Shown here one piece after another: positions 4,926 through 55,429 of a stretch of 64,000 nucleotides of DNA (its first letter is position 1; each line of letters starts with the position of its first letter). The stretch covers positions 1,191 to 65,190 of the forward strand of contig JAQUQI010000007.1 of the NCBI GenBank assembly GCA_028716165.1, read 5' to 3'. The notes beneath the pieces were generated by a model. That model was not told where the DNA came from, made no database searches, and saw only the letters and a program-made list of their open reading frames with translations. Origin of the DNA: Candidatus Omnitrophota bacterium. Its GTDB lineage: Bacteria; Omnitrophota; Gorgyraeia; JABMRG01. A program made the position numbers and the translations under genes.

Positions 4926-4983
4926 TTCTCACACTACTATATAATGTGTTTTTTAATTAACGGTTTTTATGCCAGGCGGGAAA

Positions 4984-8179: not shown

Positions 8180-8905
8180 ATGTTTCATACCAGGCCCCAG
8201 GCCCTTATAAAGGGTTTTCAGGAATCCACTCTTACGGATTGGGACGGAAATATAGCCTGTATAATATTTTTAGGCAGGTGTAATTTCAGGTGCGGTTTTT
8301 GCCATTCCAAAATGCTTGTGGATGGTTTTGACGATATAGATACAATACCGTTTGAGCGCATCGCGGAGTATCTGTCTAAAAAATCAGGCTGGATAGACGG
8401 GGTTGTCATAACGGGAGGAGAGCCGTGCCTCCATCAGCAGGCCCTTATAGACCTTATCAATCAAATAAAAGAACTCCGGTTTCCGGTCAAACTGGATACG
8501 AACGGTTCAAACCCGGTATTGCTTGAAAAGATCATAAAAAACGGCCTTATTGAATATGTGGCAATGGATATTAAGGCGCCATTGCGCGGGAAAGAATACA
8601 GCCGCGCGGTAAATGTCAATGTAAATATAGATGATATAATTCTGTCAAAAGATATTATAATAAATTCCGGCCTTGAGCACGAATTCCGGACAACCGTAGT
8701 CCCGGGAATAATTGATAAAAATAATATTCTTGATATAGCAAGAGAAATCAGAAAAGCGCGGAAATACTGCATCCAGCAATTTGTGCCAAGAGACACTCTC
8801 AACCCCGGCTTCATGTCACTTAAGCCATATAAAGCCGAAGACCTCTATGAGATGGCGGATTCCGTTAAACATTATATAAAAAATACAATAGTAAGGCCGA
8901 ATTAA
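8180..8905 (+). CDS. nrdG: anaerobic ribonucleotide reductase activating protein (radical SAM)
   Basis: The radical-SAM cluster motif CNFRCGFC is present and the gene sits in nrdD context. Confidence 0.85.
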   Translation: MFHTRPQALIKGFQESTLTDWDGNIACIIFLGRCNFRCGFCHSKMLVDGFDDIDTIPFERIAEYLSKKSGWIDGVVITGGEPCLHQQALIDLINQIKELRFPVKLDTNGSNPVLLEKIIKNGLIEYVAMDIKAPLRGKEYSRAVNVNVNIDDIILSKDIIINSGLEHEFRTTVVPGIIDKNNILDIAREIRKARKYCIQQFVPRDTLNPGFMSLKPYKAEDLYEMADSVKHYIKNTIVRPN

Positions 8906-38151: not shown

Positions 38152-41100
38152 GTGAAGACAGTATTGAGAAGAGCTGTAGTTTTCATTGTTTTGCTTAGTT
38201 TTGTGTTTCCGAATACTATTTATGCCAATGATCTCAAAATTCACACCTTAAGGCAGATGTCAGCAGCTTTAAGCAATTTCAACAGCCGGTTTATTGATAA
38301 AGATTTCTTTTACGGAGAATTCAGTGATATAAAAAAAATATTAGACAGGGATATGTTCAGGGATTATGATTACCGGACAAGAGGCCGCGAAATTGACCCC
38401 CGCATAGCTTTTAGGATGGGGATTATCTGGGCGAGAATGGCCCTGGACAACATGTCCAGTTTTCATGTAGACAATAAAACTGTTATTTTTGCCCGGGATT
38501 GCCGTGACGTTAATCCCGAAATAGCCGAGGCTGTTATCGCGGGAGTAAGATATTGCGGGCTTAATGTAATTGATATTTCACAAACTATGCGTAACAGCGC
38601 CGCCGCTTATTCATGGTCTGTGATACAGCATAAGCCGCTTATGGGTATTTTTATGACCTCAAGTCATGTAACAGGCGATGGTGTATCAGGATTTAAAGTT
38701 AGCATAATGGGCAGAAACGGTAAACTGCAAAGCCTCACCACCAGAGAGATAAAAGATGTAAGTTATGGCCTGTTGACCCTGATGATAGAAGAGCCCGATA
38801 TTATAAACGCGTATAAAAGCCAGGATATGGGCAGTCTGAATGCCTGCCATGGCACAGAAACTGAAGCCGCGGATTTTATCACTTTATTAGGCAGGATAGT
38901 TTCAGGTGAACACAACAAAGAGCTGGCTGTCCGGGCAAGGACTGTTATGCGGTCAAAAGACCCGGCGGCAATGACCAGGCTGATGAACAATAGTATGGCA
39001 GGGCAACAGCCGTTGAAAGGCATGACGGTTGTTATAGATTCTGCCCATACACCAAGCGGTGTTATAGCTGAAAAGACGTTTGCTGATTTGGGGGCCGCGA
39101 TAATATCATTGCATGCCGAACCCATGCTTTTAAAAGGAAATCATAAGGCAGACCCGTCAAAGCCTGAAAATTTAGAAGACCTGAAAGCCGAGATGCTTAA
39201 ATCCGGAGCAGGCCTTGGCCTTGCTTTTGACCTTGACGGCGACAGAGGGGCTATTTGCGTGCCTGACGGAAGAGGCGGTGTAGACGTATTGTCACCGGAC
39301 AATGTTATGGCGGCTATATTGAAATTTCTCATTAAAGGGTGCGGTTATGAACAGACCGGACCGATTGCCGTGGTGCGTGATGTCTTGTCAACGCGGGGCG
39401 TTGACGACGAGGCAGAGCTGTATGGAGTGCGCGCGGAACAGACCGATGCCGGCTACGTCTTTTTAAAGGAAAGAGTCCGTTTTCTTCAGACCAACGGATT
39501 TACCGTCCCAATTTATGGAGAACGTTCCGGTCATATCTGGCTTGATGCCGCGGGCGAGTTTGAAAATCCAATAGCTGTAGCAGTGTTATTTGCCGTAATG
39601 AACTCTGACCTTCTTTTTAAATATAAACCCGTGGCCTATAAGCAGTCTCCCCGTTTTCAGCCGGAGTTTTCACAGCCGCTATTGGCCGTTCTTTCTTCTC
39701 ATAAGCACAACGATACGGGATGGAATTATAAAGAAGCGGTAGAATATCTTGTCAACGGAACCGGCCACAAGCCGCCGCAGAAGATTATAGCGCTTGGCAG
39801 GGACCACGCGATAAAAATTTTGTCAGAAGTGTTTAAAAAAGGCGCGGAGTTCAAGACTCCTATAGGTAAAATCAGCGTTGAGAGTTATGATACGTATAAA
39901 GACGACGAATCCGCGGGCGGGTTGTTTAGATACGCGGATATAGGTTTTTCAAGAAATGGAGAATATATAGGCAGATTCGTATTTCGCGCCTCATCCAATG
40001 ACCCTACGTTTGTTTGTTCTTTTGAAGCTGCTCATGGCAGTGGAGAGATTGGGGAAACTGTCAGCCTAAGATATATTTCCGTGGGAGGACTTGTTCTTGA
40101 TAGCCTGGAACAGCTTAAGTTAGCCTCTATTACCGGCGTGCCACAAGGCGTGCGCCAGACACTCGAAGACTATAGAAGCCTTATGAAGATACCGGCTGTT
40201 TCGGCCAATAATCCTATCTTCTTTGAATTTGTTTCAGCAGGGCAGACGCTCAACGGCGGGGTTGATTTTGAACCTATTCAAAAGCCCGGTTTTTTTCAAT
40301 CTATAAGCGAGGAGATGCTTGATAATATGGCTTTTGATCTTGCGTTCAGGACGGGAAAACCGGAAAGGCTTAAGATGCTGAATGAGATATTTGAAATAGC
40401 ATCTGTAAAAAAAATATTTCCCGCCTCAATACATAATCTATACATGGTAATGGGCAAAGGCTGGACAGGCGGTTTTACTGTTCCCGCCATAAATATTAGA
40501 GGGCTAACCTATTATACCGCCCGGGCGGCATTCAAAGCCGCTGTTAAGCGCAATGTCGGGGTAATGATATTTGAAATAGCAAGAAGCGAGTTAGGTTATA
40601 CCGGACAGGACGTATTGGAATACGCTGGCCAGATTACCTTGGCTGCAATGAGAGAAGGTTATGAAGGGCCTTTGTATTTCCAGATAGATCACGGCCAGGT
40701 CAATGCCAAAAAAGATTACGATTCAGAGATAAAGGCATTGAAAGACCTGTTCAGAGAAGCTATCGTTGACGCTAAATTCGGAAATATTGATGTGGATACA
40801 TCCACGCTGGCCCTGACAGAAGGCAGTCTCAAGGAACAGCAAATGCCGAACGCGCGCGCTATTGCTGAATTGATAAAAAATATCAGGTCTATAGAACCTG
40901 AAAACACCACCATATCTATAGGAGGCGAGGTAGGAGAAGTCGGCAACAGGAACACCACGCTTGATGACGTGGAGGCTTTCATGGACATATTAAACGGCAT
41001 GCTTACCGCCGATAATATATCCGTTGGTTTAAGCAAGTTGAGCATACAGACAGGAACGGCTCATGGAGGGGTCCCATTGCCGGACGGCAGTCTCGCGCAG

Positions 41101-42279
41101 GTAAACATTGATTTTGATATAATTGAAAAGGTAAGCGCATTAGTAAAAAAGAAATACGGCATGTCCGGGGCTGTCCAGCACGGCGCGTCCACCTTGCCTG
41201 ATGAGGCGTTTCATCATTTTGTTGATAAAAAAGCTTCTGAAATTCATCTTGCGACAGGATTTCAGAATATAATATTTGACAGCAAATATTTTCCGAAGGA
41301 ACTGCTCAACAGAATATATGAGATACTTCTGACGGATCCGGCCTTTGCCTCTGACAGGGCCAAGCTGGAATCCGGCAAACAGACAAAAGAGCAGTTTTTG
41401 TATTCAACAAGAAAAAAAGCGTTTGGAATACCGGAAATAAAGCTTGCAATGTGGACACTACCCGAAGAAACTATAGATAATATACTCAAGGAACTTGAGG
41501 AAAAATTCGGGTTTTTATTTGAACAATTGAATGTTGTTAATACTCTTAATCTGCGAAGATATGCCGTCAAAATACCTATCGGCAAATCCTCCTCCGCAGG
41601 TATCCTTGAACTCGACAAGCCTTATACCCTTACAGAGTACAACTTATTATCAGTCATAGATGAGTCTATACGCGAGAATAACGGTGTCCTGGCGAATACA
41701 CTTATTGAGTCCAAGCTCTCGGCAGAGCTTATCAGGCTTTGCCCTAAGTTTTTAGCAGATCAGGCCGGCCTTGAAAGAAACCACATTGTTGCCATTGATG
41801 ATAAGATGCTTCCCGAAGGCCATATATTCAATAAGTATCTTTTAAAAGATACGGCACAGCATCAGGCCCTGGAAGAGTCTCATGGCTGTATGATACGCTT
41901 GTTGTCCCAGCTGACAACAGATGAGTTGACAGGCAGAAACCTTATAATCATATCGGACCGCAGGAGCATAGAAGGATATGAAAAGGCCCTATATCTCAAT
42001 GTTGATAAACAAAGGATAGATGCCGGACTCCTGCTCGCCCCGTATATCGGTATAGCAAGGCTTTTGCTTTCCGCAAGAGAGGACATAGTAATTGACATAA
42101 CAAACGCCTTAAACAAGGACAACCTTTACAGTATGCTTTTTGGCAGGCCTGCCAAGGAAGATGATATAAGGAAATTCCTTATTGAAGGTATATATGAACT
42201 TCCGGCCCCTGCCATTGTCAATTATCAGCAGGCAGAGGACATGCACCGCGCCTCATTGGCCGCGTTGATAGCAGCTTAA
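38152..42279 (+). CDS. 1375-aa secreted multidomain protein: phosphomannomutase/phosphoglucomutase-like domain, class II fructose/tagatose-bisphosphate aldolase domain and a shared 233-aa C-terminal domain
   Basis: Signal peptide. PGM/PMM-like motifs TSSHVTGDG and LAFDLDGDRGAI. Class II aldolase motifs FTVPAINIRG, YFQIDHG, SIGGEVGEVG, TGTAHGG and VQHGAST. The C-terminus is identical to that of the next gene. Confidence 0.7.
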   Translation: MKTVLRRAVVFIVLLSFVFPNTIYANDLKIHTLRQMSAALSNFNSRFIDKDFFYGEFSDIKKILDRDMFRDYDYRTRGREIDPRIAFRMGIIWARMALDNMSSFHVDNKTVIFARDCRDVNPEIAEAVIAGVRYCGLNVIDISQTMRNSAAAYSWSVIQHKPLMGIFMTSSHVTGDGVSGFKVSIMGRNGKLQSLTTREIKDVSYGLLTLMIEEPDIINAYKSQDMGSLNACHGTETEAADFITLLGRIVSGEHNKELAVRARTVMRSKDPAAMTRLMNNSMAGQQPLKGMTVVIDSAHTPSGVIAEKTFADLGAAIISLHAEPMLLKGNHKADPSKPENLEDLKAEMLKSGAGLGLAFDLDGDRGAICVPDGRGGVDVLSPDNVMAAILKFLIKGCGYEQTGPIAVVRDVLSTRGVDDEAELYGVRAEQTDAGYVFLKERVRFLQTNGFTVPIYGERSGHIWLDAAGEFENPIAVAVLFAVMNSDLLFKYKPVAYKQSPRFQPEFSQPLLAVLSSHKHNDTGWNYKEAVEYLVNGTGHKPPQKIIALGRDHAIKILSEVFKKGAEFKTPIGKISVESYDTYKDDESAGGLFRYADIGFSRNGEYIGRFVFRASSNDPTFVCSFEAAHGSGEIGETVSLRYISVGGLVLDSLEQLKLASITGVPQGVRQTLEDYRSLMKIPAVSANNPIFFEFVSAGQTLNGGVDFEPIQKPGFFQSISEEMLDNMAFDLAFRTGKPERLKMLNEIFEIASVKKIFPASIHNLYMVMGKGWTGGFTVPAINIRGLTYYTARAAFKAAVKRNVGVMIFEIARSELGYTGQDVLEYAGQITLAAMREGYEGPLYFQIDHGQVNAKKDYDSEIKALKDLFREAIVDAKFGNIDVDTSTLALTEGSLKEQQMPNARAIAELIKNIRSIEPENTTISIGGEVGEVGNRNTTLDDVEAFMDILNGMLTADNISVGLSKLSIQTGTAHGGVPLPDGSLAQVNIDFDIIEKVSALVKKKYGMSGAVQHGASTLPDEAFHHFVDKKASEIHLATGFQNIIFDSKYFPKELLNRIYEILLTDPAFASDRAKLESGKQTKEQFLYSTRKKAFGIPEIKLAMWTLPEETIDNILKELEEKFGFLFEQLNVVNTLNLRRYAVKIPIGKSSSAGILELDKPYTLTEYNLLSVIDESIRENNGVLANTLIESKLSAELIRLCPKFLADQAGLERNHIVAIDDKMLPEGHIFNKYLLKDTAQHQALEESHGCMIRLLSQLTTDELTGRNLIIISDRRSIEGYEKALYLNVDKQRIDAGLLLAPYIGIARLLLSAREDIVIDITNALNKDNLYSMLFGRPAKEDDIRKFLIEGIYELPAPAIVNYQQAEDMHRASLAALIAA

Positions 42280-42431
42280 AATGTATTACGGAGACTAGTA
42301 TCAGATTCCTCGCTTCGCTCGGAATGACAGGCGTACTTTGCCTGTCATCCAGAGCGGCAGAAGGCGAAGCCAGAGTAGGCCGCGAAGGATCTGGGAGTGA
42401 CCCATGTGTCATCCAGAGCGGCGGAAGGCGA
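41580..42431 (+). repeat. copy 1 of an 852-bp, 100 %-identical direct repeat (coding C-terminus plus start of a repeat cluster)
   Basis: Identical to 44119–44970 by direct comparison. Confidence 0.9.
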
Positions 42432-42636
42432 GGCATGCATCGTTAGCGAAGGATCTGGGAGTGAAATGAGTATTAGATTCCTCGCTTCGCTTGGAATGAC
42501 AAAAGCTTCGCTCGGAATGACAGCGAGGGGCGCTTGAAATGACAGAAGCAGTGCCCCCAATGACAGGCGCACTTTGCCTGTCATCCAGAGCGGCACAAGT
42601 CGGGGCCAGAGTAAGCCGCGAAGGATCTGGGAGTGA
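42295..42636. repeat. mosaic repeat cluster E
   Basis: attagattcctcgcttcgctcggaatgaca…tgtcatccagagcgg… units. It overlaps the spurious N-terminal extension of the 42539 ORF. Confidence 0.85.
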
Positions 42637-42661
42637 AAGCAGTAAAACCCGGAGGGTTATT

Positions 42662-44818
42662 ATGAAAAAGATTATTATTAAAGCAATAAACATTGCTATG
42701 GCTATTGTTTTTTCTGCCTCGTCAATTGTTTCCGCGCAGGTTCTTGATAATAGCAATACGCAGTATTTACGCGCCCCTGCCGCGGCAGGTAATGTTACAG
42801 CGGATTTAACGCACGCGCTTTCCGCGCCGCCGGTAGAGACTTTTCCCTGGTGGCATATCACCGAGCGTAAAGTAGCAAAGTATATAGCCGAATTAAGCGG
42901 TACACGGGATGAACGTTATCGCGCGGCAATAGAGCTTGGCAGGCTTGGTAAGCATGCCGAACCTTCCATTCCGTATCTTATAAAGGTGATGCTTTCTGAT
43001 GAAGAAAAAGGCCTGCGGACTGCAAGCGCGGCTTCACTTGGGGCTATTGGTATTCCTTCGCAAGAGGTTGTGTCCGCATTAAACAAGGCCTTGGAGGACA
43101 GCGAATACGATGTGCGTGTCAAGGCCATGCGTTCTTTGGCGGCATTAGATAAGCTTACCGTTGAGATGAAAGTCAAAAGATATATAATGGACATGGGTGA
43201 TGCCGATCCTAATGTTCGCGCTAATGCAAGCAAAGAATTGTATAATATCGGCTACCCCGCCATTCCTATTATAGAGGCCAGGAAAAATTCGAATGAGGTT
43301 TTAGCTAAAGCCGTGGATTCATTATATTGGCGCATTCTCCGCGGCAAATTATTTGATGTAGAAAATTTGATGAGACAGTTAGAGGGTGAAAATAAGGCCG
43401 CGCAGGAAAGGGCATCTGATATATTCTTCCGGCTCGGTAATGAAGCGGTACCTATATTAATAGAGGCATTAGGTTCTAATAAGCATAAACTGCGTTTGCG
43501 GGTATCCGAGATACTTTTCCGGATAGGGCTTATCGCTGCCGATGACCTTGCAAACGCTTTAAAAGAAGACGATCTATACATAAGGACATATTCCGCTGAT
43601 GTCTTAACCAGGCTTGGCATTAAGTCCGCGCCGTTTGTTATTAGAGAGCTTGGCAATCGCACAAGTAATGCGCGTTTTTATGTAAAATCAATTCTTTTAA
43701 GATTAGGCCCCGAAGTTATTCCGATGCTTTCGGATGTACTGAATATAGGTGATAATTCAGCGTGTGAAGACGCTATTGATATTCTAGAAGAGTTTTCCAA
43801 ACAGCTTCCGGAAAGAAATATTGTTTTAATAAGGGCGTTAGGGCACAATAACTGGTTTGTAAGAGAGCAGGCATTGAAAGCGATTAAACGGATTGGGTTA
43901 TTGACAAAAGATATGGAGCTATTCAAATACAGCAAAGACTTAAAGGATGAAGCCTGCCCGGGATTTATTAAGCAGGATGCCTTGAGAGGGTTAAGCGTTT
44001 TGCCGGGTCCTGGATCACACAAGATTGTAACGGCGTTTAAAACTTTTGATCCAGATCTGGGTCATATGCGTGAAAACGCATTAGATGACCTTGCTCCCGG
44101 AGTTGATGAAGATAAAGGCGGCAAATCCTCCTCCGCAGGTATCCTTGAACTCGACAAGCCTTATACCCTTACAGAGTACAACTTATTATCAGTCATAGAT
44201 GAGTCTATACGCGAGAATAACGGTGTCCTGGCGAATACACTTATTGAGTCCAAGCTCTCGGCAGAGCTTATCAGGCTTTGCCCTAAGTTTTTAGCAGATC
44301 AGGCCGGCCTTGAAAGAAACCACATTGTTGCCATTGATGATAAGATGCTTCCCGAAGGCCATATATTCAATAAGTATCTTTTAAAAGATACGGCACAGCA
44401 TCAGGCCCTGGAAGAGTCTCATGGCTGTATGATACGCTTGTTGTCCCAGCTGACAACAGATGAGTTGACAGGCAGAAACCTTATAATCATATCGGACCGC
44501 AGGAGCATAGAAGGATATGAAAAGGCCCTATATCTCAATGTTGATAAACAAAGGATAGATGCCGGACTCCTGCTCGCCCCGTATATCGGTATAGCAAGGC
44601 TTTTGCTTTCCGCAAGAGAGGACATAGTAATTGACATAACAAACGCCTTAAACAAGGACAACCTTTACAGTATGCTTTTTGGCAGGCCTGCCAAGGAAGA
44701 TGATATAAGGAAATTCCTTATTGAAGGTATATATGAACTTCCGGCCCCTGCCATTGTCAATTATCAGCAGGCAGAGGACATGCACCGCGCCTCATTGGCC
44801 GCGTTGATAGCAGCTTAA
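42662..44818 (+). CDS. secreted HEAT/PBS-lyase-repeat protein carrying the same 233-aa C-terminal domain
   Basis: Start placed at MKKIIIKAINIAMAIVFSASS (signal peptide; GGAGGG Shine-Dalgarno). HEAT-like repeats (AAIELGRLGK…, VRVKAMRSLAAL…). The C-terminus from GKSSSAGILELD… is identical to that of 38152–42279. Confidence 0.7.
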   Translation: MKKIIIKAINIAMAIVFSASSIVSAQVLDNSNTQYLRAPAAAGNVTADLTHALSAPPVETFPWWHITERKVAKYIAELSGTRDERYRAAIELGRLGKHAEPSIPYLIKVMLSDEEKGLRTASAASLGAIGIPSQEVVSALNKALEDSEYDVRVKAMRSLAALDKLTVEMKVKRYIMDMGDADPNVRANASKELYNIGYPAIPIIEARKNSNEVLAKAVDSLYWRILRGKLFDVENLMRQLEGENKAAQERASDIFFRLGNEAVPILIEALGSNKHKLRLRVSEILFRIGLIAADDLANALKEDDLYIRTYSADVLTRLGIKSAPFVIRELGNRTSNARFYVKSILLRLGPEVIPMLSDVLNIGDNSACEDAIDILEEFSKQLPERNIVLIRALGHNNWFVREQALKAIKRIGLLTKDMELFKYSKDLKDEACPGFIKQDALRGLSVLPGPGSHKIVTAFKTFDPDLGHMRENALDDLAPGVDEDKGGKSSSAGILELDKPYTLTEYNLLSVIDESIRENNGVLANTLIESKLSAELIRLCPKFLADQAGLERNHIVAIDDKMLPEGHIFNKYLLKDTAQHQALEESHGCMIRLLSQLTTDELTGRNLIIISDRRSIEGYEKALYLNVDKQRIDAGLLLAPYIGIARLLLSAREDIVIDITNALNKDNLYSMLFGRPAKEDDIRKFLIEGIYELPAPAIVNYQQAEDMHRASLAALIAA

Positions 44819-44970
44819 AATGTATTACGGAGACTAGTATCAGATTCCTCGCTTCGCTCGGAATGACAGGCGTACTTTGCCTGTCATCCAGAGCGGCAGA
44901 AGGCGAAGCCAGAGTAGGCCGCGAAGGATCTGGGAGTGACCCATGTGTCATCCAGAGCGGCGGAAGGCGA
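44119..44970 (+). repeat. copy 2 of the 852-bp perfect direct repeat
   Basis: Identical to 41580–42431. Confidence 0.9.
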
Positions 44971-45232
44971 AGTACGCTTCGTTAGCGAAGGATCTGGAAG
45001 TGACCCATGTGTCATCCAGAGCGGCATAATCGGGGTAGAAGTCGTTAGCGAAGGATCTGGAAGTGACCCATGTGTCATCCAGAGCGGAACCGGCGAAGCA
45101 AGCTTCGTTAGCGAAGGATCTGGGAGTGAAATCAGTATTAGATTCTTCGTCGCGCCTTCGGCGCTCCTCTGAATGACAAGGAGGACGCTCGGAATGACAA
45201 TGAGAGGCTCGCAATGACAAGGGTGAGGCTCG
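44834..45232. repeat. mosaic repeat cluster F
   Basis: Three regularly spaced copies of a gttagcgaaggatctggaagtgacccatgtgtcatccagagcgg unit with about 20-nt variable cores. The right end matches cluster B. Confidence 0.85.
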
Positions 45233-45616: not shown

Positions 45617-45667
45617 CCTATCCATATATTTCTATTAATTCTCTATATCACCCAATTATGCATTTGA

Positions 45668-45890
45668 ATGACAGGTGTTGTTCATGTGTCATCCAGAGCG
45701 GCATAAGCAAAGCAGGAGTCGTTAGCGAAGGATCTGGGAGGGATCCGTCTGTCATCCAGAGCGGCGGAAGGCGAGGCCAGAGTCGGCCGCGAAGGATCTG
45801 GGAGTGAAATGAGTATCAGATTCCTCGCTTCGCTCGGAATGACAAGGGCTTCGCTAAGGATGACAAGTTATCCGGAATGACAAAAGTGAC
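45668..45890. repeat. mosaic repeat cluster G
   Basis: tgtcatccagagcgg / gcgaaggatctggga units, then attcctcgcttcgctcggaatgaca. Confidence 0.8.
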
Positions 45891-46127: not shown

Positions 46128-49100
46128 ATGAAAAAGCTGTGCGCTGTTTTATTGGTGTTTTCCATGATTGGCCTTATGCCTGTCAACAGTTTCGCGGCAA
46201 GCGCGACATGGGATGGCAGTGATAGCGGGCTTTGGGTCACAGGAGGAAACTGGGTAGGTGATTCGGCTCCCGGTATTGCCGACGGAACGATCGTCAGCAC
46301 CGACGTAGCGACATTTACAGGTGTGCTCAATAATGCTGTTACGGTTGATGATACCAGAAACGTTTCCGGTATCACCTTTGATGCCGCGGCAGGCGCTTTT
46401 ACGTTAAGCGGCAGTACTCTTTACCTTACAGCGAGCGGCACCGTGCAAAATCATGCCGACATTGCAACCACCCAGACAATTAATTCCAATATACTGTTAG
46501 GTGGTGATTACACCTTTACCAACATTGCCACAGACAATAGCAAGCTTATGAATTTTGGCGGAACAATAACAGGCTTTGCGGATACCGCGCAAACTCTTAC
46601 TCTTAGCGGCGGCAACACGGGATCAAATACATTAAGCGGTGTAATAAGTAACGGCAGCGGAACGGGTGTTTTAGGTATAACCAAGTCAGGCGCCGGCACA
46701 TGGATACTTTCAGGAAATAATACCTATACAGGAACAACTACTATCAGCGCCGGGACACTTACCGCGACAAACAGCGCAAATGCTCTCGGCGCCGGCGCGG
46801 TAGCAATCTCAGGCGGCACACTTAATCTTGCCAATGACACCGGGCTGGCTTTTGGCCGTAACGTGACTGTAAGCGGTGACGCGACTATTAATTCCGATAC
46901 ACTTACCGGTGTAGCCGGTGTCACACATACTTTGGGTACATTAAGCATAGGTGCTAATACTTTAACTGTCGGTCTTGCTACTACAGCCGCCAGCGGTGAG
47001 CAAGCACTTACCTTTGGCGATGTTACATTGACCGGTGCCGCTACTATTAACGCGAATACCGGTGTTGGCGGAGCAACCGGATTGCTGACTCTTGGCGCGG
47101 TAGGCGGTGACGGGCAAAATCTTACTATAGGTGGTTCGGCAGGTACCAATATAACCGGTATTATCGGAACAGGCGCAGGGACGCTTACCAAAAATGGCAC
47201 AGGCACACTTACCTTATCAGGCGTTAATACTTACAGCGGCGGCACAACAATCAGCGCCGGTGTTGTAAGCGCTACAACGTCAGCGGAAGCTTTGGGTACA
47301 GGCGCTATTACCGTTGCGGACGGCGCGGCACTTCAGGTGACAGGCGCTCTTGATTTTGATGAAGCGCTTACAATAAGCGGCACCGGTATAAGTTCAGGAG
47401 GTGCTCTTAGAAATATCAGCGGTAATACAAACTGGTCAGGCGTTGTAACTTTAGGCGCGAATGCCAGGATCAATTCGGATGCGGACACCCTGACATTAAG
47501 CGGCGCTACTATTGACGAGGCCTTTGACATAACCGTAGGCGGAGCGGGCAATACCGCTATAACAGGCATCATTGCCACAGGCGCTAATACAATTACAAAG
47601 GACGGCACAGGCACACTTACCTTATCAGGCGTTAATACTTACAGCGGCGGCACAACAATCAGCGCCGGGACACTGCAGGTAGGCAATAATTCAGCCTTAG
47701 GTGCCGGAGCTGTGAACAATAACGCGACATTAAATATAGGAACATATACAGTTGATATAGGAGCCGGTGTTTATACTCAAGGCGCCGGCAGCAGCCTGCA
47801 ATTGACTGCCAATTCTTCAACTGAATACGGCAGTATTGTGTCAACAGGCGACGCCGCGGATGCAGCCGCGGCAAGCACGGTTGATGTCACGGTAGGCGGT
47901 TACATACCCCATAGCACCGTGCTGACGGTCCTTAATACCGGCGCCGGCAGTACCATTGACGATACCTTGATTACGACTACATCAACCAGTTCAAAAATAA
48001 GTTTTACACCTTCAATGTCAAGCGGAAAACTTATCCTGACAGCAAACCGCTCGGCAACAGGTTTTTCCAGTAATGGCACGGATTCCAATGCTAAGGCCTT
48101 GGGTTATGTCCTTGACAATGTCACCAATCCCACGTCGGATATGACCACCGTGTTAAATACCCTTGAGGGACTTTCGGCAGCAAACGTTGATACCGCGCTC
48201 CAGACCCTTGAGCCATCAGTTGATGCCGGTGTTATAGGCGCCAGCAATCTTGCCGCCGGACAGTTTATACAGACTATCATAAGCCGTTTCGGAGTAGATA
48301 GAGGACCTTCGGGCGTTGCCACAGGAGACCCCAATATAAAGACAAAAGATATATGGGCAAAAGGTTTCGGAACATATGCCAAACAGGACAAGAGAAAGGG
48401 CATTGAAGGTTACAGGGCTGATGTCATAGGTGCTGCCGTCGGCGTGGATTTTGTCGCCACGGAAAAGGCCACTCTCGGTATCAGTGCGGGCTACGCGTAT
48501 AGCAAGATAAAACCCAAAAAGACAAGCCTCGGCAGAACGGAATCAGATAGTATGCAGGGTTCTTTATACTACAGCTATAATAATGAATTAAATTATATAG
48601 GTAAAGACGCCTTGTATTTTGATCTTATCGGTTCATTCGCTTGGAATATGTATGAAGGAAAGCGTAATGTGTCCGCAGGCAGTATAAGCAGGCAGGCAAA
48701 GTCCGATTATGACGGCCAGCAGTATACTGCATATGCTGAATCAGGCTACTATATCCCATCGGGCAACATAGATTTTGTCCCGCTCGCCTCTTTGCAGTAT
48801 AGCCGTCTTGAGATTGAAAAATACACCGAAAGCGGGGCTGATTCGCTGAACCTTACGGTTAATAAACAGCATTACGACCTTCTGGAATTAGGGCTCGGCG
48901 TAAAGGTCTCTTCAATAATGAAAAACGAAGGTTACGATGTCATCCCTTCGGTAAGGGGCAAATGGCTCTATGACTTCATAGGCGACAAAATGGAGACAAC
49001 CTCAAGATTTACCGGAGGAGGCGCTTCATTTAGCACAACAGGCGCCGAACCTGCAAAGAGTTCTTTTGACATAGGAGCCAGCCTTACGTTTTTGGGTAAA

Positions 49101-49193
49101 AACAATGTAAAGGTTGACTTTGATTATGACTTTAATTTTAGGGATGATTTTAATTCCCACAACGGTGCTATAACGGTTAAATATAGTTTTTAA
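46128..49193 (+). CDS. autotransporter outer-membrane protein with PATR-type passenger repeats
   Basis: Start at MKKLCAVLL after AAGAGGAGGAGG. Signal peptide. Repeated [20 protein letters not shown] motifs. The C-terminal beta-barrel ends …ITVKYSF. Confidence 0.8.
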
Positions 49194-49279
49194 ATAATGA
49201 GGTTTTAAAAAAGGGGCGCGGATGATAAAAGGCAGATCATCCGCGTCTTTTATTTTACAGACGTTTTAAGGCACGGTGT

Positions 49280-49560
49280 TGTAGGCGTCCTATGAGGTAA
49301 CACCCTGTAAATGACAGAGGAGGCGAGTATTGGATTCCTCGCTTCGCTCGGAATGACAGGCGTACTTTGCCTGTCATCCAGAGCGGCGGAAGGCGAGGCA
49401 GGAGTAAGCCGCGAAGGATCTGGAAGTGAAAGAAGTATTGGATTCTTCGTCGCGCCTTCGGCGCTCCTCTGAATGACAAGGAAAACGAGTACCAGATTCC
49501 TCGCTTCGCTCGGAATGACAATAAGAGGCTCGGAATGACAAGGGCTTCGCTAATGACGAC
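49280..49560. repeat. mosaic repeat cluster H
   Basis: Mosaic units ending 4 nt before the ATG of the nucleotidyltransferase gene. Confidence 0.85.
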
Positions 49561-49563
49561 AAA

Positions 49564-50763
49564 ATGAATATAAAAAATATAAACATTAGAAACAACCGCG
49601 AATTCACATTAATCAGTCATGCCCTGCGCTATATTGTCAATGGACAGTTATCTTCAGAATTTGAGAGCTTATTGAGTGATAAAAATATTGATTGGCATTT
49701 ATTAAATAATTTATTATTCTATCATGAGATTGCCCCGTTTTTTTATGTAGCGGCAAAACATTATAAATGCCTGTTACCCTCTGACATGGAAAAAGTCCTG
49801 TCCTGGATTTATTGCCGGACAGCCCTGCAAAACCAGCTTATCCTTGAAACATATTCGGACATATATGACGCGTTTAGATCAAACGGGGTTGGATTACTGC
49901 CGATCAAGGGGGCGGCCCTCTTGCAAGACCTTTATGAAAAATTTCCCGTAAGGCCTATGTCCGACATAGATTGTCTTGTCCGCGAAACTGATTATGAAAA
50001 ATCAAAAGATATTTTAAAGAGCGCGAATTATGACATTGATCTTAGGGGGTTAAGCGAGTCTTATTGGATAATGAAACAGTGCCATGTCCCTTTCAGCGCC
50101 CGGCAGAAAAAAGCAATGGTCAATCCCGCCGTTGAACTGCATCTAAGGCTTGATTTTAAGCGATATGGCAGGGAACCTTTGCCCTATGTCTGGCAGAGGG
50201 CAAGAGACATTAATATAAACGGAAAGAATTTTCTCCGGCTTTCACCCGAAGACAGCCTGTTTAGCCTGGCACTGCACCAGAGGAGATTCGGCAAGCCGCT
50301 TTGCCTTAAATACGCTCTTGATACCGCGCTTCTTTTTAAAAAATATGAGAATGATTTTGACTGGGATTACGTTATCAATATGTGCGTGAAGGAACGTATG
50401 CGCAACTGCGTGTATTTTTTGCTGTTTCAGGCGGAAGTCCTTCTGCCGGGACATTCCGGTATCGCGAAAGGCCTGCGGCTGTTAAGGCCCGATTTTCTAA
50501 AGCGCAAGATGATGGAAAGATTTATCTTGGATAATACAGCTTCAGGGTATTTATTTGAAAGGATAAGACCCAATTATCTCCGCAGCCATTTTTTGCTGTA
50601 TGACAGTCTTGTAGAGCCCGTTATGTATATCATTAATATACCGAAAGAACAGTTCGCCAAATATTATTGCCTGCCGTTTGACGATAAAAAAACGGAAATA
50701 GCTTATAGGTTTAGGACGGCATATATCATAGGACGGTTTTTAAAGAAAAAACGCAAGAATTGA
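49564..50763 (+). CDS. uncharacterised nucleotidyltransferase (NTP_transf_5-like), convergent with the RiPP operon
   Basis: The …LLPIKGAALLQDLYEKFPVRPMSDIDCLVRETDYEKSKDIL pattern recalls lasso-peptide-associated nucleotidyltransferases. Assignment from memory; no database was run. Confidence 0.5.
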   Translation: MNIKNINIRNNREFTLISHALRYIVNGQLSSEFESLLSDKNIDWHLLNNLLFYHEIAPFFYVAAKHYKCLLPSDMEKVLSWIYCRTALQNQLILETYSDIYDAFRSNGVGLLPIKGAALLQDLYEKFPVRPMSDIDCLVRETDYEKSKDILKSANYDIDLRGLSESYWIMKQCHVPFSARQKKAMVNPAVELHLRLDFKRYGREPLPYVWQRARDININGKNFLRLSPEDSLFSLALHQRRFGKPLCLKYALDTALLFKKYENDFDWDYVINMCVKERMRNCVYFLLFQAEVLLPGHSGIAKGLRLLRPDFLKRKMMERFILDNTASGYLFERIRPNYLRSHFLLYDSLVEPVMYIINIPKEQFAKYYCLPFDDKKTEIAYRFRTAYIIGRFLKKKRKN

Positions 50764-50804
50764 TGTCGCGCGGGGAATGAAAATCCTTTGCCAAAGCGCG
50801 CAGA

Positions 50805-51095
50805 TTACGCATATTTAATGATATTATGTTTAAGCAGATTGTCGGTAAATTCTAATACGTCTTTTTCTATGTTTTCCGGTGAAGCATCAAATTCAGCTCC
50901 GATAAGGCCGATAATGTCCGACAGGTTTTTTTGACCGTCTATCCGGTCCCATATGTATAATCCCATGGGATTTAATCTGTATACCTTGTTTGAAGGTATG
51001 TGCACTATTATCAATTCTCCGTCAATTGCCCGCCATGCCAGCTGTCGTTTATTTATTATAGGTTTATGGTTGTGTTCAGGTTGATTTTTTAGCAT
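50805..51095 (-). CDS. PqqD-family RiPP recognition/chaperone protein
   Basis: Translation …YRLNPMGLYIWDRIDGQKNLSDIIGLIGAEFDASPENIEKDVLEFTDNLLKHNII matches the PqqD pattern. Confidence 0.75.
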   Translation of the reverse strand: MLKNQPEHNHKPIINKRQLAWRAIDGELIIVHIPSNKVYRLNPMGLYIWDRIDGQKNLSDIIGLIGAEFDASPENIEKDVLEFTDNLLKHNIIKYA

Positions 51096-51125
51096 ATGTT
51101 TCCTTTCTTCAATGAGGAATATTAT

Positions 51126-51296
51126 TTATCTACAAACAACACTTCCCGTGCATACCACGGGCGAGACGGTACATCTTGCGGCATGCGCTATAGTGCCCTC
51201 TTCGGGATGTTCTATTGCCTCAATCTCCGGTATTTGATAGTTCTTTTTAGTGTTTTTTTTGGCAAAATGTTTAAAATCTTTCGCATCATTTTTCAT
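51126..51296 (-). CDS. RiPP precursor peptide 1 (56 aa)
   Basis: Manual minus-strand translation: MKNDAKDFKHFAKKNTKKNYQIPEIEAIEHPEEGTIAHAARCTVSPVVCTGSVVCR. The Shine-Dalgarno GGAGGAG lies 6 nt upstream. Below the ORF-track size cut-off. Confidence 0.7.
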   Translation of the reverse strand: MKNDAKDFKHFAKKNTKKNYQIPEIEAIEHPEEGTIAHAARCTVSPVVCTGSVVCR

Positions 51297-51312
51297 AGTT
51301 TTCTCCTCCAGT

Positions 51313-51486
51313 TTATCCGTCGCAAACTATAAATGAAGGGCATTCCGCGGGCGATACAGGGCATCCCGCGGCATGCGCTATAGTGCCCTCTTCGGGATGT
51401 TCTATTGCCTCAATCTCCGGTATTTGATAGTTTTTTTTAGTGTTTTTTTTGGCAAAATGTTTAAAATCTTTCGCATCATTTTTCAT
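51313..51486 (-). CDS. RiPP precursor peptide 2 (57 aa)
   Basis: Translation MKNDAKDFKHFAKKNTKKKYQIPEIEAIEHPEEGTIAHAAGCPVSPAECPSFIVCDG. Same Shine-Dalgarno. Its stop overlaps the Shine-Dalgarno of peptide 1. Confidence 0.7.
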   Translation of the reverse strand: MKNDAKDFKHFAKKNTKKNYQIPEIEAIEHPEEGTIAHAAGCPVSPAECPSFIVCDG

Positions 51487-51502
51487 AGTTTTCTCCTCCA
51501 GT

Positions 51503-51655
51503 TTATCCGTCGCAAACTATAAATGAAGGGCATTCCGCGGCATGCGCTATAGTGCCCTCTTCGGGATGCTCTATTGCCTCAATCTCCGGTATTTGGTATT
51601 TCTTCTTGGTTTTTTCGCGGTTAAGAATTTTATCTTTTGCATTCGTATTTTTCAT
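51503..51655 (-). CDS. RiPP precursor peptide 3 (50 aa)
   Basis: Translation MKNTNAKDKILNREKTKKKYQIPEIEAIEHPEEGTIAHAAECPSFIVCDG. It lies 21 nt downstream of the rSAM stop. The Shine-Dalgarno is weaker. Confidence 0.6.
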   Translation of the reverse strand: MKNTNAKDKILNREKTKKKYQIPEIEAIEHPEEGTIAHAAECPSFIVCDG

Positions 51656-51676
51656 GTTTGGGTTTTATATTATTCA

Positions 51677-52678
51677 TTATAATTCTTTCCAAAAATCGTG
51701 CAGAGCCTTGATACTGGTATAAGCTTGTTCGGGGCATTTTACAAAGGTATTTGTCACAGCCTGTGATTGAGCGGGGCATCTGAACATACATGTTTTTTTG
51801 AATTCACATACCTTGCAGTCAATATAATCCTCACACTTTAATTTTCTAAGAGCGTTAAAACATTCAGATTTACGCCATATCTCTTTAAGCGGCTGTTTAT
51901 ATATATTACCCGCTTCCATAGGAAATACGGCGCATGGAAAAACTTTTCCGTCAGCGGCGATATAGCATCTTTCAGTGCCGGCATGGCACGGTAAGGGGTC
52001 AACTGATTTAGGAGACGGCTCAACCGGTTTTTCATATGATTTTATTATAACACCCCACTGCTTTAATTTCGGAAGTATCTGCTCCAGCGGTATTTTACAT
52101 TTGGTAAGCGTCTGGTCGCAGTGCCTGCCGGCGGAAACGCCTGTTGAAAATTTTAGTTCTACATCGCGCCTATTCACGAAAAGACTATTAATAAGCGGGG
52201 TATCATTGCAGGTAACGGCATTTATATTATAAGCAATGTATACCTTAATACCCGCGGCAAGGAGATTCTCTATCCCTTCAACCGCTTTTTTGAACATTCT
52301 TTTGCCGGTAAACGCCTCATAAGTTTCTTCGCTTGCTCCATATAGGCTTACTCCAGCTTCATTGATGCCGTAATCATAAAGTTTTTTGGCCATGCCCTGA
52401 TTTATCAGCGTCCCATTGCTTAATATATCTACCCTAAAGCCCCTGTCGCGGGCCTGTTCTATATAATAAAATATTTTTTTTAAGGTAAACGGCTCGCCTC
52501 CGGTAAATGTAATATGAAAAGCCCCTGCATCGGCGAGCTCATCCAGCAGTTTTATCAGCCTTTCGTGTTTTAATTCGGCACCGTCTTTTTTATTGATGCA
52601 ATACATGCAGTTAAGATTGCAGAAACGGGTGAGTTCTATGTGAACCTTTTTTATATAATTTTTTGCAAGTCCTTCCAC
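51677..52678 (-). CDS. radical SAM/SPASM-domain peptide maturase
   Basis: N-terminal CNLNCMYC (CX3CX2C) cluster. The C-terminus has 7 or more Cys in a SPASM-like arrangement (…CKVCEFKKTCMFRCPAQ…VKCPEQ). Confidence 0.8.
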   Translation of the reverse strand: MEGLAKNYIKKVHIELTRFCNLNCMYCINKKDGAELKHERLIKLLDELADAGAFHITFTGGEPFTLKKIFYYIEQARDRGFRVDILSNGTLINQGMAKKLYDYGINEAGVSLYGASEETYEAFTGKRMFKKAVEGIENLLAAGIKVYIAYNINAVTCNDTPLINSLFVNRRDVELKFSTGVSAGRHCDQTLTKCKIPLEQILPKLKQWGVIIKSYEKPVEPSPKSVDPLPCHAGTERCYIAADGKVFPCAVFPMEAGNIYKQPLKEIWRKSECFNALRKLKCEDYIDCKVCEFKKTCMFRCPAQSQAVTNTFVKCPEQAYTSIKALHDFWKEL

Positions 52679-53577
52679 AATGACCCTCTTTTCAAGAGTT
52701 CTTTTTTGATATTTTCACAGCCTATTGTTAATATGCCGCTTTTTACCTGAAGTGCCAAGCTGTTTAATCGGTTGAACATGTTTTTTACAGCGCGGTTGTT
52801 TACAATCTCCATATTAAAGGTATTAACGCTTGATGTCAATAGTTTTATCGCGGCTTCCGGTTTTGAGATGGCCTGCCAGCGCAAATTCCACCCCGTGGCT
52901 TTTTCAAGAAATATAAGCAGAGACGGCACGCGGTAGCTTTCCCATGAGCCGGCATTTAAGAGATTTAGCGTGTCTTTGCGGTTATTTCTTCTGCTTAGTC
53001 CTTCAATATAGGGAAATGTGACAGATATGGTGTTACGGCCTTTTTTACCTATCATGGTATGGGAATCGCTTATTATCTTAAATCCGTTGACCGCGGCGCT
53101 TATCAGAAGGGTTGTTTTGCCGTAACCCGAAGGCCCTGTGGCAATTACGCAATGCCTGTCCTTTGCCCAGCATGAGGCGTGCAGAAACGCGAAACCGTCA
53201 ATTTTTAACAATGTCTTTAAAGTATTTTGAAACAGCGCGTAATAACCTATAGTCTGCTGGTTTCTGTAAACAAGGCCAACCCATGATCTGTTTTTAAGGT
53301 TAAATAACGATTCATAGTGGTCATTGTTTTGAATTTTACCGCCGGATGCCAGTATATCCTGCCGCAGTGTCTTGTATGTTTCTTTACCGCGCAACAGGGT
53401 TATGGTAATGTTTTTTGGGTTTTTTACAGTAGGGGTATTTATATAATGATTTTTTATGTAATTGACCAGAACGGGGACATCGGTTATCAGGTTGATCTTG
53501 TAATCATATATGGAAAAATCATAGGTCAATAACCGTTTTGCGTGAATGTCATTCAGAGCGTATGCTGTTTTTGGCAT
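52651..53577 (-). CDS. HPr-kinase-related (HprK C-domain-like) P-loop protein
   Basis: VIATGPSGYGKTTLLISAAVNGFKIISDSHTMI parallels the HprK Walker A region. An AGGAG Shine-Dalgarno precedes it. The start overlaps the rSAM gene. Confidence 0.65.
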   Translation of the reverse strand: MPKTAYALNDIHAKRLLTYDFSIYDYKINLITDVPVLVNYIKNHYINTPTVKNPKNITITLLRGKETYKTLRQDILASGGKIQNNDHYESLFNLKNRSWVGLVYRNQQTIGYYALFQNTLKTLLKIDGFAFLHASCWAKDRHCVIATGPSGYGKTTLLISAAVNGFKIISDSHTMIGKKGRNTISVTFPYIEGLSRRNNRKDTLNLLNAGSWESYRVPSLLIFLEKATGWNLRWQAISKPEAAIKLLTSSVNTFNMEIVNNRAVKNMFNRLNSLALQVKSGILTIGCENIKKELLKRGSLWKDLQKII

Positions 53578-53684
53578 CAGGTCTCCTGTTGGGAAGCTTA
53601 ATAAAATAATTATATCTCATATGGCTGTTGTTATCAACAAGTATTACAGACGTTTTGAAAGTTACGAGGCAAGCGTTTTCACGC

Positions 53685-54215
53685 ATCATCCGGGGCGGCA
53701 GTATTAGATTCCTCGCTTCGCTCGGAATGACAGACGCACTTTGCCTGTCATCCAGAGCGGCAGGAGGCGAGGCAAGTGTCAGCCGCGAAGGATCTGGGAG
53801 TGAGCCCTGTGTCATCCAGAGCGGAACCGGCGAAGCAAGTTTCGTTAGCGAAGGATCTGGGAGGGAAATCAGTATTGGATTCTTCGTCGCGCCTTCGGCG
53901 CTCCTCTTAAATGACAAGGAAGCCCACGGCGCTCCTCTGAATGACAAAAGGAGGCGAGTACCAGATTCCTCGCTTCGCTCGGAATGACAGGCGTACTCTG
54001 CCTGTCATCCAGAGCGGAACCGGCGAGGCACGGGTCATACGCCTGTCATCCAGAGCGGAACCGGCGAGGCACGGGTCATACGCCTGTCATCCAGAGCGGC
54101 AGGAGTCGGGGTCAGTGTGAGCCGCGAAGGATCTGGGAGTGAAGTCAGTATTGGATTCTTCGTCGCGCCTTCGGCGCTCCTCTGAATGACAACGATAGCC
54201 TTCGGCGCTCAAGGT
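53685..54215. repeat. mosaic repeat cluster I (longest, about 530 bp)
   Basis: At least seven units. It contains an exact tandem duplication of a 41-bp unit, cctgtcatccagagcggaaccggcgaggcacgggtcatacg, at 54001–54082. Confidence 0.85.
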
Positions 54216-54377
54216 TTAAAACGTTTACAGCCGCTTAATACGCTTGACAAAGGATATAATATCTCATATGATTATATATGATATGACAAGAGATGCTATA
54301 ATTTACTATAATAACATTCGGGCAATTTCTGTTATAAGCCCTGATGCGCGGCTTATCTTTTATGGAGGAAAAACACG

Positions 54378-54608
54378 ATGGCAAAATCCCTTATTACACC
54401 GGCAGAAATAAGCAAGATGCACGATATTTCATATCAGACTGTTAATTATTATACCAATCTCGGGCTTTTAAAAGTGGAAAAGAAAATAGCCAACAGCCGT
54501 CTGTATAATTCAAAAGACGTCAACTCGCGGCTTAAAAAACTATCCGACCTTAAAAGCCAGGGGTATTCCCTAAGGCTTATATGCGGCCTGTTGAGGGAGA
54601 ATAGATGA
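54378..54608 (+). CDS. small MerR-like HTH protein
   Basis: HTH segment ISKMHDISYQTVNYYTNLGLL. Confidence 0.5.
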   Translation: MAKSLITPAEISKMHDISYQTVNYYTNLGLLKVEKKIANSRLYNSKDVNSRLKKLSDLKSQGYSLRLICGLLRENR

Positions 54609-55429
54609 GCTATTATACCGCGCTGGGCTTAAAGAAAGAGCCTTTTTCAAACAGCCCTGACCCGGAGTTTTTCTTTGAATCCAGCGAGCACAAGGCCGCT
54701 CTTACAAGGCTGTTGATAGAGATACGCCTTAGGCGGGGCTTGAGTGTGATATTAGGCGATGTGGGTGTCGGCAAAACCACCCTTTCGCGCAAGCTTTTTC
54801 AGATGCTCAAGGAGCGCGAGGACGTTTTATTTTACATGATAATGGACCCCACTTCCGGCAGTGAGGAGCTTTTCCTGCAGTCGCTTGTTCGCACGTTTAA
54901 CCTGCAGGAGCAGATAGAAGGCCTGCCGACGATACTTGACTATAAGGAAACGATAAAGAAATTTTTATTCCAGAAAGGCGTTGAAGAAAACAAAACCATT
55001 GTCCTTGTCGTTGATGAGGCGCAGAAGCTTAATCCTGCCTCGCTTGAGACCTTGCGCGTTCTGTTAAATTATGAGACAAATGATTTTAAACTGCTTCAGC
55101 TTGTATTATTTTCCCAGATGGAGCTTTTGCCGCGCATTAAGGAGATGAAAAATTTTTTTGACAGGATAGTGCTGAAATACGTTGTGAATTCTTTAGACGA
55201 GGCGGAAACAAAGGATTTTATCAATTTTCGCATGGAACATTCAGGGTTTAATCCCGGGACTTTATTGTTTACCGATGAGGCGGTAAGCGAAATTTACAGG
55301 CACAGCCAGGGATATCCGCGCAGGATAAATCTTATATGCCACAATGCCCTAAGAAACCTTCTCGTAAGCGATAAGATGCTTATAGACGGCGTTGACGTAA
55401 GAGAGGTTATAGCAAGGAGCGTGATTTAA
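54605..55429 (+). CDS. ExeA/GspA/MshM-like AAA ATPase
   Basis: Walker A GDVGVGKTT and Walker B VLVVDEAQ. Upstream of the secretin genes. Confidence 0.7.
   Translation: MSYYTALGLKKEPFSNSPDPEFFFESSEHKAALTRLLIEIRLRRGLSVILGDVGVGKTTLSRKLFQMLKEREDVLFYMIMDPTSGSEELFLQSLVRTFNLQEQIEGLPTILDYKETIKKFLFQKGVEENKTIVLVVDEAQKLNPASLETLRVLLNYETNDFKLLQLVLFSQMELLPRIKEMKNFFDRIVLKYVVNSLDEAETKDFINFRMEHSGFNPGTLLFTDEAVSEIYRHSQGYPRRINLICHNALRNLLVSDKMLIDGVDVREVIARSVI

Follow-up and report, generated by a model that had tools for sequence, protein, structure and literature searches.

A tandem repeat in a Candidatus Omnitrophica operon as a probable array of three precursor-peptide genes beside a radical SAM/SPASM enzyme

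On the minus strand of a 64,000-nucleotide (nt) stretch of Candidatus Omnitrophica DNA (contig JAQUQI010000007.1; hereafter the window), a tandem repeat between positions 51126 and 51655 raises the question of what its units encode and what kind of product would result. The best explanation of the whole, which we consider very likely, is that the repeats form an array of three precursor genes for a peptide that is ribosomally synthesised and post-translationally modified (RiPP) within an operon of this organism. An earlier reading made from the letters alone (the sequence-only reading) had placed three precursor open reading frames (ORFs) here, and minus-strand re-translation recovers all three. 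Their cysteine counts, two in A1 and three each in A2 and A3, are as that reading gave them and fall in the C-terminal parts. GenBank lists the three as PHV77_04755/60/65, hypothetical proteins from a metagenome-assembled genome (MAG) of Candidatus Omnitrophica. The elements of the array are the following:

51503..51655, minus strand: precursor gene A1, 50 amino acids (aa), MKNTNAKDKILNREKTKKKYQIPEIEAIEHPEEGTIAHAAECPSFIVCDG; shortened core with two cysteines
51313..51486, minus strand: precursor gene A2, 57 aa; core GCPVSPAECPSFIVCDG; a mosaic
51126..51296, minus strand: precursor gene A3, 56 aa; core RCTVSPVVCTGSVVCR
51150..51540: tandem duplication of 190 nt, beginning in the tail of the A1 core, crossing the spacer and A2, and ending within the A3 core
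51487..51502, minus strand: spacer between A1 and A2, ACTGGAGGAGAAAACT, containing the Shine-Dalgarno sequence (SD) GGAGG
51297..51312, minus strand: A2-A3 spacer with a GGAGG SD, identical in sequence to the A1-A2 spacer

Tandem Repeats Finder reports a period of 190 nt over 51150-51540 (2.1 copies, 95% matches, score 719), and, when the DNA is compared with itself at a 190-nt offset, a single mismatch interrupts the identity between 51540 and about 51368. Three copies of the leader string CTATAGTGCCCTCTTCGGGATG are present against zero expected, while the stop/SD/start junction GGATAAACTGGAGGAGAAAACTATG, at A1 to A2 and A2 to A3, and the core-tail string CGTCGCAAACTATAAATGAAGGGCATTCCGCGG each occur twice where chance predicts none. 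The threefold repetition described earlier therefore holds for the leader string but not for the core tail, which is found in two copies rather than three. Likewise, the leader identity reported for two copies is real but covers 40 N-terminal residues, shared by A2 and A3, instead of 39. The remaining copy, A1, had been described as diverged at its N-terminus; its 5' third is indeed unrelated, and the segment YQIPEIEAIEHPEEGTIAHAA is common to all three genes, but it lies at a spacing of 169 nt instead of 190 nt because of a 21-nt in-frame deletion.

The array sits in an operon whose order on the minus strand is HprK-like gene, radical S-adenosylmethionine (SAM)/SPASM gene, A1-A2-A3 and PqqD gene, with a convergent NTP_transf_5 gene beyond it:

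53609..53637, minus strand: promoter-like TTGATA-17-TATAAT, 11 of 12 matches, 32 nt before the first operon gene; a consensus match only
52651..53577, minus strand: HprK-like P-loop protein, putative peptide kinase, 308 aa; overlaps the radical SAM start by 28 nt
51677..52678, minus strand: radical SAM/SPASM maturase, 333 aa, with C20-x3-C24-x2-C27
50805..51095, minus strand: discrete PqqD-family RiPP recognition element (RRE), 96 aa
49564..50763, plus strand, convergent: NTP_transf_5 (PF14907) nucleotidyltransferase-family gene, 399 aa

The maturase matches PF04055 (Radical_SAM) with 90.1 bits against a cutoff of 29.5 and PF13186 (SPASM) with 42.9 bits against 21.5, the PqqD protein matches PF05402 with 64.4 bits against 23.4, and the NTP_transf_5 protein scores 135 bits, above the Pfam cutoff. 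Across four orthologues, the CX3CX2C cysteines C20, C24, and C27 are invariant, as are C231, C238, G244, C249, C288, C291, C297, C301, and C315 of the SPASM domain, whose seven-cysteine motif is CX9-15GX4C...CX2CX5CX3C...C. The maturase begins directly with the radical SAM core and carries no N-terminal RRE domain; in alignments with the StsB and SkfB sactisynthase profiles, the match begins only at profile positions 94 and 106, past the N-terminal domains of those enzymes. A maturase without its own RRE fits the need for a separate PqqD recognition protein. The HprK-like protein has HPr kinase 1jb1 as its best PDB match (E = 5e-6). Thus, the hallmarks of an RRE-dependent radical SAM/SPASM RiPP system are present, namely the CX3CX2C core, the SPASM domain, the PqqD element, and conserved coding precursors.

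Relatives of the precursors were sought among 5.8 billion proteins by word index and, exhaustively by profile, among 1.84 billion representatives. Both searches confine the family to a handful of contigs of Omnitrophota type, and a metagenome DNA scan with the precursor profile returned only loci L003 and L009 again and no new locus. Set against roughly 15 billion proteins, the family is seen in only some five public contigs. Maturase relatives at 89%, 72%, and 48% identity all have precursor genes in the same slot, and the relatives differ in precursor number:

L002: three precursor genes, then PqqD and NTP_transf_5
L008, another Omnitrophota MAG: four precursor genes; synteny is complete and extends to the adjacent autotransporter
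L003: at least two precursor genes
L004/L010: one precursor gene

Four precursor copies are found in the L008/L009 pair. NTP_transf_5 adjoins the cluster in L002, L008, and L009 too, and a discrete PqqD is kept in L002, L004, L005, L008, and L009. At maturase identities of 28-30%, the more distant L005 (Sericytochromatia), L006, and L007 combine the radical SAM gene with HprK-like and/or PqqD genes, and each has a small ORF bearing Y-x-(K/R)-P-x-(L/I). Two candidates were rejected: P0011, a 960-aa match of the profile search with 10 matching stretches, is a satellite-like repeat protein and a spurious cumulative match, and of the two loci returned by a scan of a genome collection with the HprK-like profile, L011 (described below) and L012, the latter is a false positive, being a generic AAA+ protein.

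Leader differences were counted by codon position in the minus-strand frame over 33 inter-locus pairs, and fall as 172/183/300 at positions 1/2/3, an excess at the third position. The ratio of nonsynonymous to synonymous differences (pN/pS) is about 0.25-0.65 in the leader, below 1 in every pair, and 0.27-0.65 in the core, where pS, at 0.5-0.74, is near saturation. All length differences among the precursors are multiples of three. These patterns indicate that the A1-A3 ORFs evolve as coding sequence. Together with the retained synteny of radical SAM/SPASM and PqqD genes, substitutions that fit the sense frame bear out the identification of the three ORFs as precursor-peptide genes. Diversifying selection on the cores is ruled out by pN/pS below 1 in all comparisons. 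Moreover, core types are common to different genomes: L002-b matches L008-c, and the A3 core has its nearest counterpart in L002-a, the first precursor of that locus. Purifying selection and shared types together point to old, selectively maintained cores, so the small library of diverging cores proposed by the sequence-only reading gives way to a set of long-standing types.

What modification these precursors undergo is suggested first by their leaders. The close family follows the consensus K-K-Y-Q-x-P-x-I-x9-T-x-A-(H/D)-x3, then C-x2-S-P-x2-C-x5-8-C-x1-2, and the residues Y20, P23, I25, and T35 of the window leader stand at the spacing of lasso-peptide leaders, with Ile replacing Leu; the Tyr-to-Thr spacing is the same in 10 of 10 close precursors. 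In lasso leaders, YxxPxL occupies positions -17 to -12 and Thr position -2 (PMC6784204, PMC10368454). The clusters of phosphorylated lasso peptides (paeninodin PadeK, ThcoK/SyanK, pseudomycoidin PsmK/PsmN, and Bradymonas BsfK/BsfB1/BsfN) resemble the window cluster in this Y-x2-P-x-(L/I) leader with Thr 15 residues on, in a discrete PqqD-type RRE, in the HPr-kinase-like H...GxxGxGK(S/T)...D spacing, and in a nucleotidyltransferase-family gene. The lasso kinase BsfK has the motif H148-G163-G166-G168-K169-S170-D186-D187 (H-x14-G-x2-G-x-G-K-S-x15-D-D). The HprK-like protein of the window, with H133, G148, G151, G153, K154, T155, D171, and S172, matches 7 of these 8 positions at identical spacing; at the position of the last Asp, Ser stands in the window (S172), L002, and L008, while L004, L005, and L007 have Asp there. 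In Bradymonas, the RRE BsfB1 strongly enhances the kinase BsfK, whose target is an internal core Ser (PMC10368454), and in pseudomycoidin a kinase and a nucleotidyltransferase act as a pair, the nucleotidyltransferase-family protein decorating the phosphate (PMC9266682).

We propose that PqqD would bind the Tyr/Pro/Ile leader motif and bring the peptide to the radical SAM enzyme, which with two auxiliary Fe-S clusters would cross-link the Cys-bearing core. The HprK-like and NTP_transf_5 proteins would then probably phosphorylate and further decorate Ser/Thr, in line with the role of their homologues in phosphorylated lasso peptides; a candidate site is the invariant Ser of C-x2-S-P. Leader removal and export would fall to genes outside the 64-kb window. 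For the cleavage site, the GTIAHA(A) junction is one option, whereas the lasso-leader rule would put cleavage after T35-I36. The predicted product is a radical-SAM RiPP whose maturation is guided by an RRE, with probable thioether bridges and possible phosphorylation.

Cys-to-carbon thioethers of the sacti- or ranthipeptide kind are the most likely cross-link, a call on which our confidence is evenly balanced. Like the systems SkfA/SkfB, StsA/StsB, and SCIFF/CteB, the window combines short precursors and C-terminal Cys cores with a radical SAM enzyme bearing a C-terminal Fe-S domain, and donor cysteines are present in the core. Multi-copy precursor genes are common in sacti- and ranthipeptide clusters. 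The StsB and SkfB profiles, both of characterised peptide maturases, align over nearly the full length of the window maturase, whose nearest solved structure is the sactisynthase SkfB (E = 5e-19, residues 13-272), ahead of PqqE and MoaA. In contrast, the enzyme falls outside the named sacti-/ranthipeptide maturase families, scoring 101.8 against the StsB cutoff of 625 and 63.5 against the SkfB cutoff of 300, and CteB (5wgg) aligns to its N-terminal part only (E = 4.5e-6). The window cluster further differs in that its RRE is a separate PqqD protein and not an N-terminal domain, in that it adds the HprK-like protein and NTP_transf_5, and in that no similarity is detectable between its precursors and those known from sacti- or ranthipeptide systems.

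The same RiPP cluster could instead perform other radical SAM chemistry, for instance epimerisation, cross-linking through a C-C or C-O bond, or oxidation of Cys/Ser, with the cysteines serving as disulfides or metal ligands; we regard this as a serious but lesser possibility. For radical SAM/SPASM enzymes, chemistry is poorly predicted by homology. The top NCBIfam scores of the maturase include AhbD/NirJ-type enzymes and the Trp-Lys cross-linker WgkB as well as sactisynthases, all far under cutoff, and the L007 precursor has no Cys in its C-terminal part. Thioethers are favoured by the retention of Cys1 and Cys2 in all close precursors (Cys3 is present in all but L004/L010) and by the fact that, among characterised peptide maturases, full-length matches are confined to the two sactisynthases. 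A wider proposal, which we put forward tentatively and hold to be somewhat doubtful, is a hybrid RiPP in which a lasso-type leader, PqqD RRE, kinase, and NTP_transf_5 have been rewired so as to serve a SPASM radical SAM enzyme in place of a lasso cyclase. Its peptide would be cross-linked, phosphorylated, and perhaps nucleotidylated or glycosylated on the Ser of C-x2-S-P, one RRE serving two to three unrelated enzymes.

Among named families, the parts of the window cluster recur in the uncharacterised peptide-modification cassettes SynChlorMet (ScmD/ScmE/ScmF), GeoRSP (PqqD-family and radical SAM/SPASM proteins), and HprK-related kinase A. These supply the best or near-best named matches, with E = 1.7e-11 for PqqD against ScmD, 1.3e-28 and 1.7e-27 for the radical SAM enzyme against ScmE and GeoRSP, and 5e-9 for the kinase against HprK_rel_A. 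The scores lie 2-5 fold under the family cutoffs (ScmD 44.1 vs 100, ScmE 99.9 vs 400, GeoRSP_rSAM 96.8 vs 400, geo_PqqD_fam 20.6 vs 100, and HprK-related kinase A, TIGR04352, 35.6 vs 200 bits), and those of L005, L007, and L011 are below them too. Judged by these scores, the window cluster is a family separate from the SynChlorMet and GeoRSP cassettes. A literature search on HPr kinase with radical SAM and PqqD, on SynChlorMet/GeoRSP, and on Omnitrophota RiPPs found nothing specific to the cluster. At L011, positions 4547-6761 of an Actinomycetota MAG contig (SXIR01000170.1), NTP_transf_5, HprK-like, and PqqD genes form a triad that lacks a radical SAM gene; after it comes a 352-aa protein that has no Pfam or NCBIfam match. 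This triad indicates that a module of kinase, nucleotidyltransferase, and RRE recurs across phyla with different partner enzymes.

How the array came to its present form can be read from its internal differences. Over 120 leader positions A2 and A3 show 2 differences, against 19 over the 48 positions of the core (Fisher p = 3e-10), and a single-nucleotide polymorphism at 51433 separates the two leaders. In contrast, A1 and A2 are 100% identical over their last 36 nt and the 16-nt spacers. A2 is thus A3-type in its 5' 119 nt and A1-type in its 3' 36 nt and spacer. This contrast indicates a mosaic in which an A3 5' part is joined to an A1 3' part, the leader identity stemming from recent recombination; the pattern of conserved leaders and diverging cores noted earlier is present, but it is explained by this history. 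Unequal crossover in the common leader stretch CATCCC...GCATGCCGC (CATCCCGAAGAGGGCACTATAGCGCATGCCGC) would have combined an A3-type leader with an A1-type core to give A2. Later, a slipped deletion between the direct repeats GCCGCGGGATGCCC and GCCCGCGGAATGCCC would have shortened A1. These repeats flank the 21-nt in-frame deletion that separates A1 from A2, and the deletion takes out C-x2-S-P, which is invariant in all other close precursors.

The same mosaic structure could, in principle, be produced by assembly. On that account, which we think unlikely, the array is partly an artefact of two genes, one A1-type and one A3-type, and A2 is a loop through their common leader that threads full-length and 21-nt-deleted alleles in series. 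A2 is exactly an A3 5' part plus an A1 3' part, the source is a metagenome-assembled genome, and the independent Logan contig L001, which equals window 52884..51539 exactly, halts at the boundary of the 190-nt repeat at 51539/51540. Against this, A2 holds 21 nt that are absent from A1, the polymorphism at 51433 distinguishes the A2 and A3 leaders, and three and four tandem copies are found in relatives on independent contigs from independent samples. Given these 3- and 4-copy arrays, the three-copy count in the window is plausible.

That the genes encode precursors of a small redox cofactor, as PqqA does with PqqD/PqqE or MftA with MftB/MftC, is very improbable. The likeness is one of architecture, a discrete PqqD-family chaperone with a SPASM radical SAM enzyme acting on a small peptide being that of pyrroloquinoline quinone (PQQ) and mycofactocin biosynthesis, and the PqqD protein reaches 41.8 bits against the TIGR03859 cutoff of 46. 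However, cofactor precursors are of a single type with an invariant core, whereas here one to four paralogues occur with several core types and lengths. The scores of the maturase are far under the cutoffs (PqqE 85.8 vs 381, MftC 87.1 vs 265), and no downstream cofactor-processing genes, PqqB/C or MftD/E/F, lie nearby.

A lasso-peptide cluster whose cyclase and protease lie elsewhere in the genome is a highly improbable reading as well. It would account for the Y-x2-P-x-I leader with Thr 15 residues past Tyr and for the HprK-like and nucleotidyltransferase genes typical of phosphorylated-lasso clusters. However, neither an Asn-synthase-like lasso cyclase nor a transglutaminase-like B2 protease is present in the 64-kb window, which likewise contains no other peptidase and no linked exporter, and cyclase and B2 protease are absent from L008 too; the cluster is therefore not of the lasso kind. 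In every relative, as in the window, the radical SAM gene holds the maturase slot. The window cores lack a suitably placed Asp/Glu: with cleavage after I36, the first Glu of A2 would stand at core position 12 and A3 would have no acidic residue, whereas a lasso core carries Asp/Glu at position 7-9. Further, the precursors do not end in Ser, and the last kinase Asp is replaced, as mentioned above.

That the repeats are non-coding, or that the 78-aa plus-strand ORF at 51096-51332 is the true gene, is barely credible, since the codon-position pattern matches the minus-strand frame and is inverted (300/183/172) for the plus-strand ORF, because codon position 1 of that ORF is sense position 3, which confirms it as the artefact it was earlier taken to be, and since the indels are in frame, an Rfam scan of 49000-54700 matched no family, and stops and SD-spaced starts are kept in relatives.

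These starts bear on how the array would be translated. At A2 and A3, GGAGG lies 8 nt before the ATG and 5 nt past the preceding stop, and short SD-bearing spacers are kept in relatives. The stop/SD/start junction described by the sequence-only reading is thus real at A1 to A2 and at A2 to A3, and translational re-initiation there is plausible. The coupled, stoichiometric output of cores that had been drawn from it is left unsupported, and for A1 it is unlikely, since A1 has no SD and a truncated core. A1 begins at a downstream ATG, behind an out-of-frame remnant of the ancestral coupled start:

51630..51677, minus strand: 15-codon out-of-frame remnant MNNIKPKHEKYECKR, closed by a stop, of the ancestral first-precursor start

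The ATG of this remnant overlaps the stop codon of the radical SAM gene (TAATG), and the same overlap is found at the first precursor of L002 and L008. A1 is possibly a copy in decay. Six terminator-like sites are present where 6.3 are expected, and the one in the A3 core (51161-51145) is taken as chance.

Several points weigh against the reading of this locus as an array of three RiPP precursor genes in a functional cluster. The evidence base is genomic throughout, and the close family comprises about five loci, all metagenomic. The precursors match no Pfam or NCBIfam family and no curated model covers them; every operon enzyme scores far below every NCBIfam family cutoff, and the chemistry is unreadable from homology. 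An AlphaFold2 model of the maturase, built on a four-sequence alignment, is unusable, with a mean predicted local distance difference test score of 47.7 and values below 35 in the SPASM part. Neither the cluster nor the 64-kb window contains a leader protease or exporter. Moreover, the Logan contig breaks at the repeat edge, so the copy number hangs on short-read assembly over a 173-nt near-identical repeat, and this array evidently gives short-read assemblers trouble. The A1 start region has no SD and its core no conserved C-x2-S-P, and the HprK-like protein may be inactive as a kinase, its last motif Asp being Ser.

The surroundings of the cassette show further features. Interspersed palindromic repeats of about 55-125 nt with the core GATTCCTCGCTTCGCTCGGAATGACAGGCGTACTTTGCCTGTCATCCAGAGCGGCA form a family that occupies several intergenic stretches, at window positions 42275-42657, 44814-45173, 45666-45865, 49304-49520, and 53678-54186. 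They bracket the RiPP cassette (49564-53577) in direct orientation with 88-91% identity over 104-114 nt, and they yield long spurious ORFs with recurring 'LPDPSLT...ALDDTWVTPRSFA' translations. In L008, a direct repeat of 169 nt (1-169 and 4732-4900, 99.4% identical) lies on both sides of the whole 4.73-kb cassette, from the HprK-like gene to NTP_transf_5, and L009, from another sample, shows a circular permutation in which NTP_transf_5 is followed by the repeat, the HprK-like gene, and the radical SAM gene. This arrangement could reflect a tandem duplication of the cassette, its excision as a circle, or a loop made in assembly. The cassette at 49564-53577 is the only sizeable minus-strand coding block of the window, the rest being on the plus strand, and the AT skew turns to -0.13 over 50-54 kb.

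Farther away, window 42000-42299 and upstream is duplicated with 100% identity at 44539-44838, so that two different proteins, from a 1375-aa ORF (38152..42279) and a 759-aa HEAT-repeat ORF (42539..44818), have their C-terminal 240 aa or so in common ('GKSSSAGILELDKPYTLTEYN...'). A second radical SAM protein of 241 aa (8180-8905) lies beside the anaerobic ribonucleotide reductase NrdD (5445-7871) and is presumably the NrdG activase, outside the RiPP cluster. For two large ORFs, at 15145-18396 (1083 aa) and 34042-35259 (405 aa), Pfam gives no match at E <= 1e-5.

Radical SAM RiPP clusters with several precursors are well known, and the cluster described here is a very rare new family of this familiar kind, which changes no general concept. 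The array is a clean, small case of how unequal crossover in a common leader reshuffles leader-core pairs and alters precursor copy number. To our knowledge, Omnitrophota is an uncultured phylum without characterised natural products, and the cluster provides a concrete, experimentally tractable RiPP lead from it and a good target for genome mining. It joins a radical SAM/SPASM maturase to a pair of kinase and nucleotidyltransferase so far studied only in lasso peptides, and this unusual set, together with the lasso-like leader, makes it a worthwhile target for expression. Such expression could reveal a new combination of modifications, and whether one RRE recruits several unrelated enzymes.

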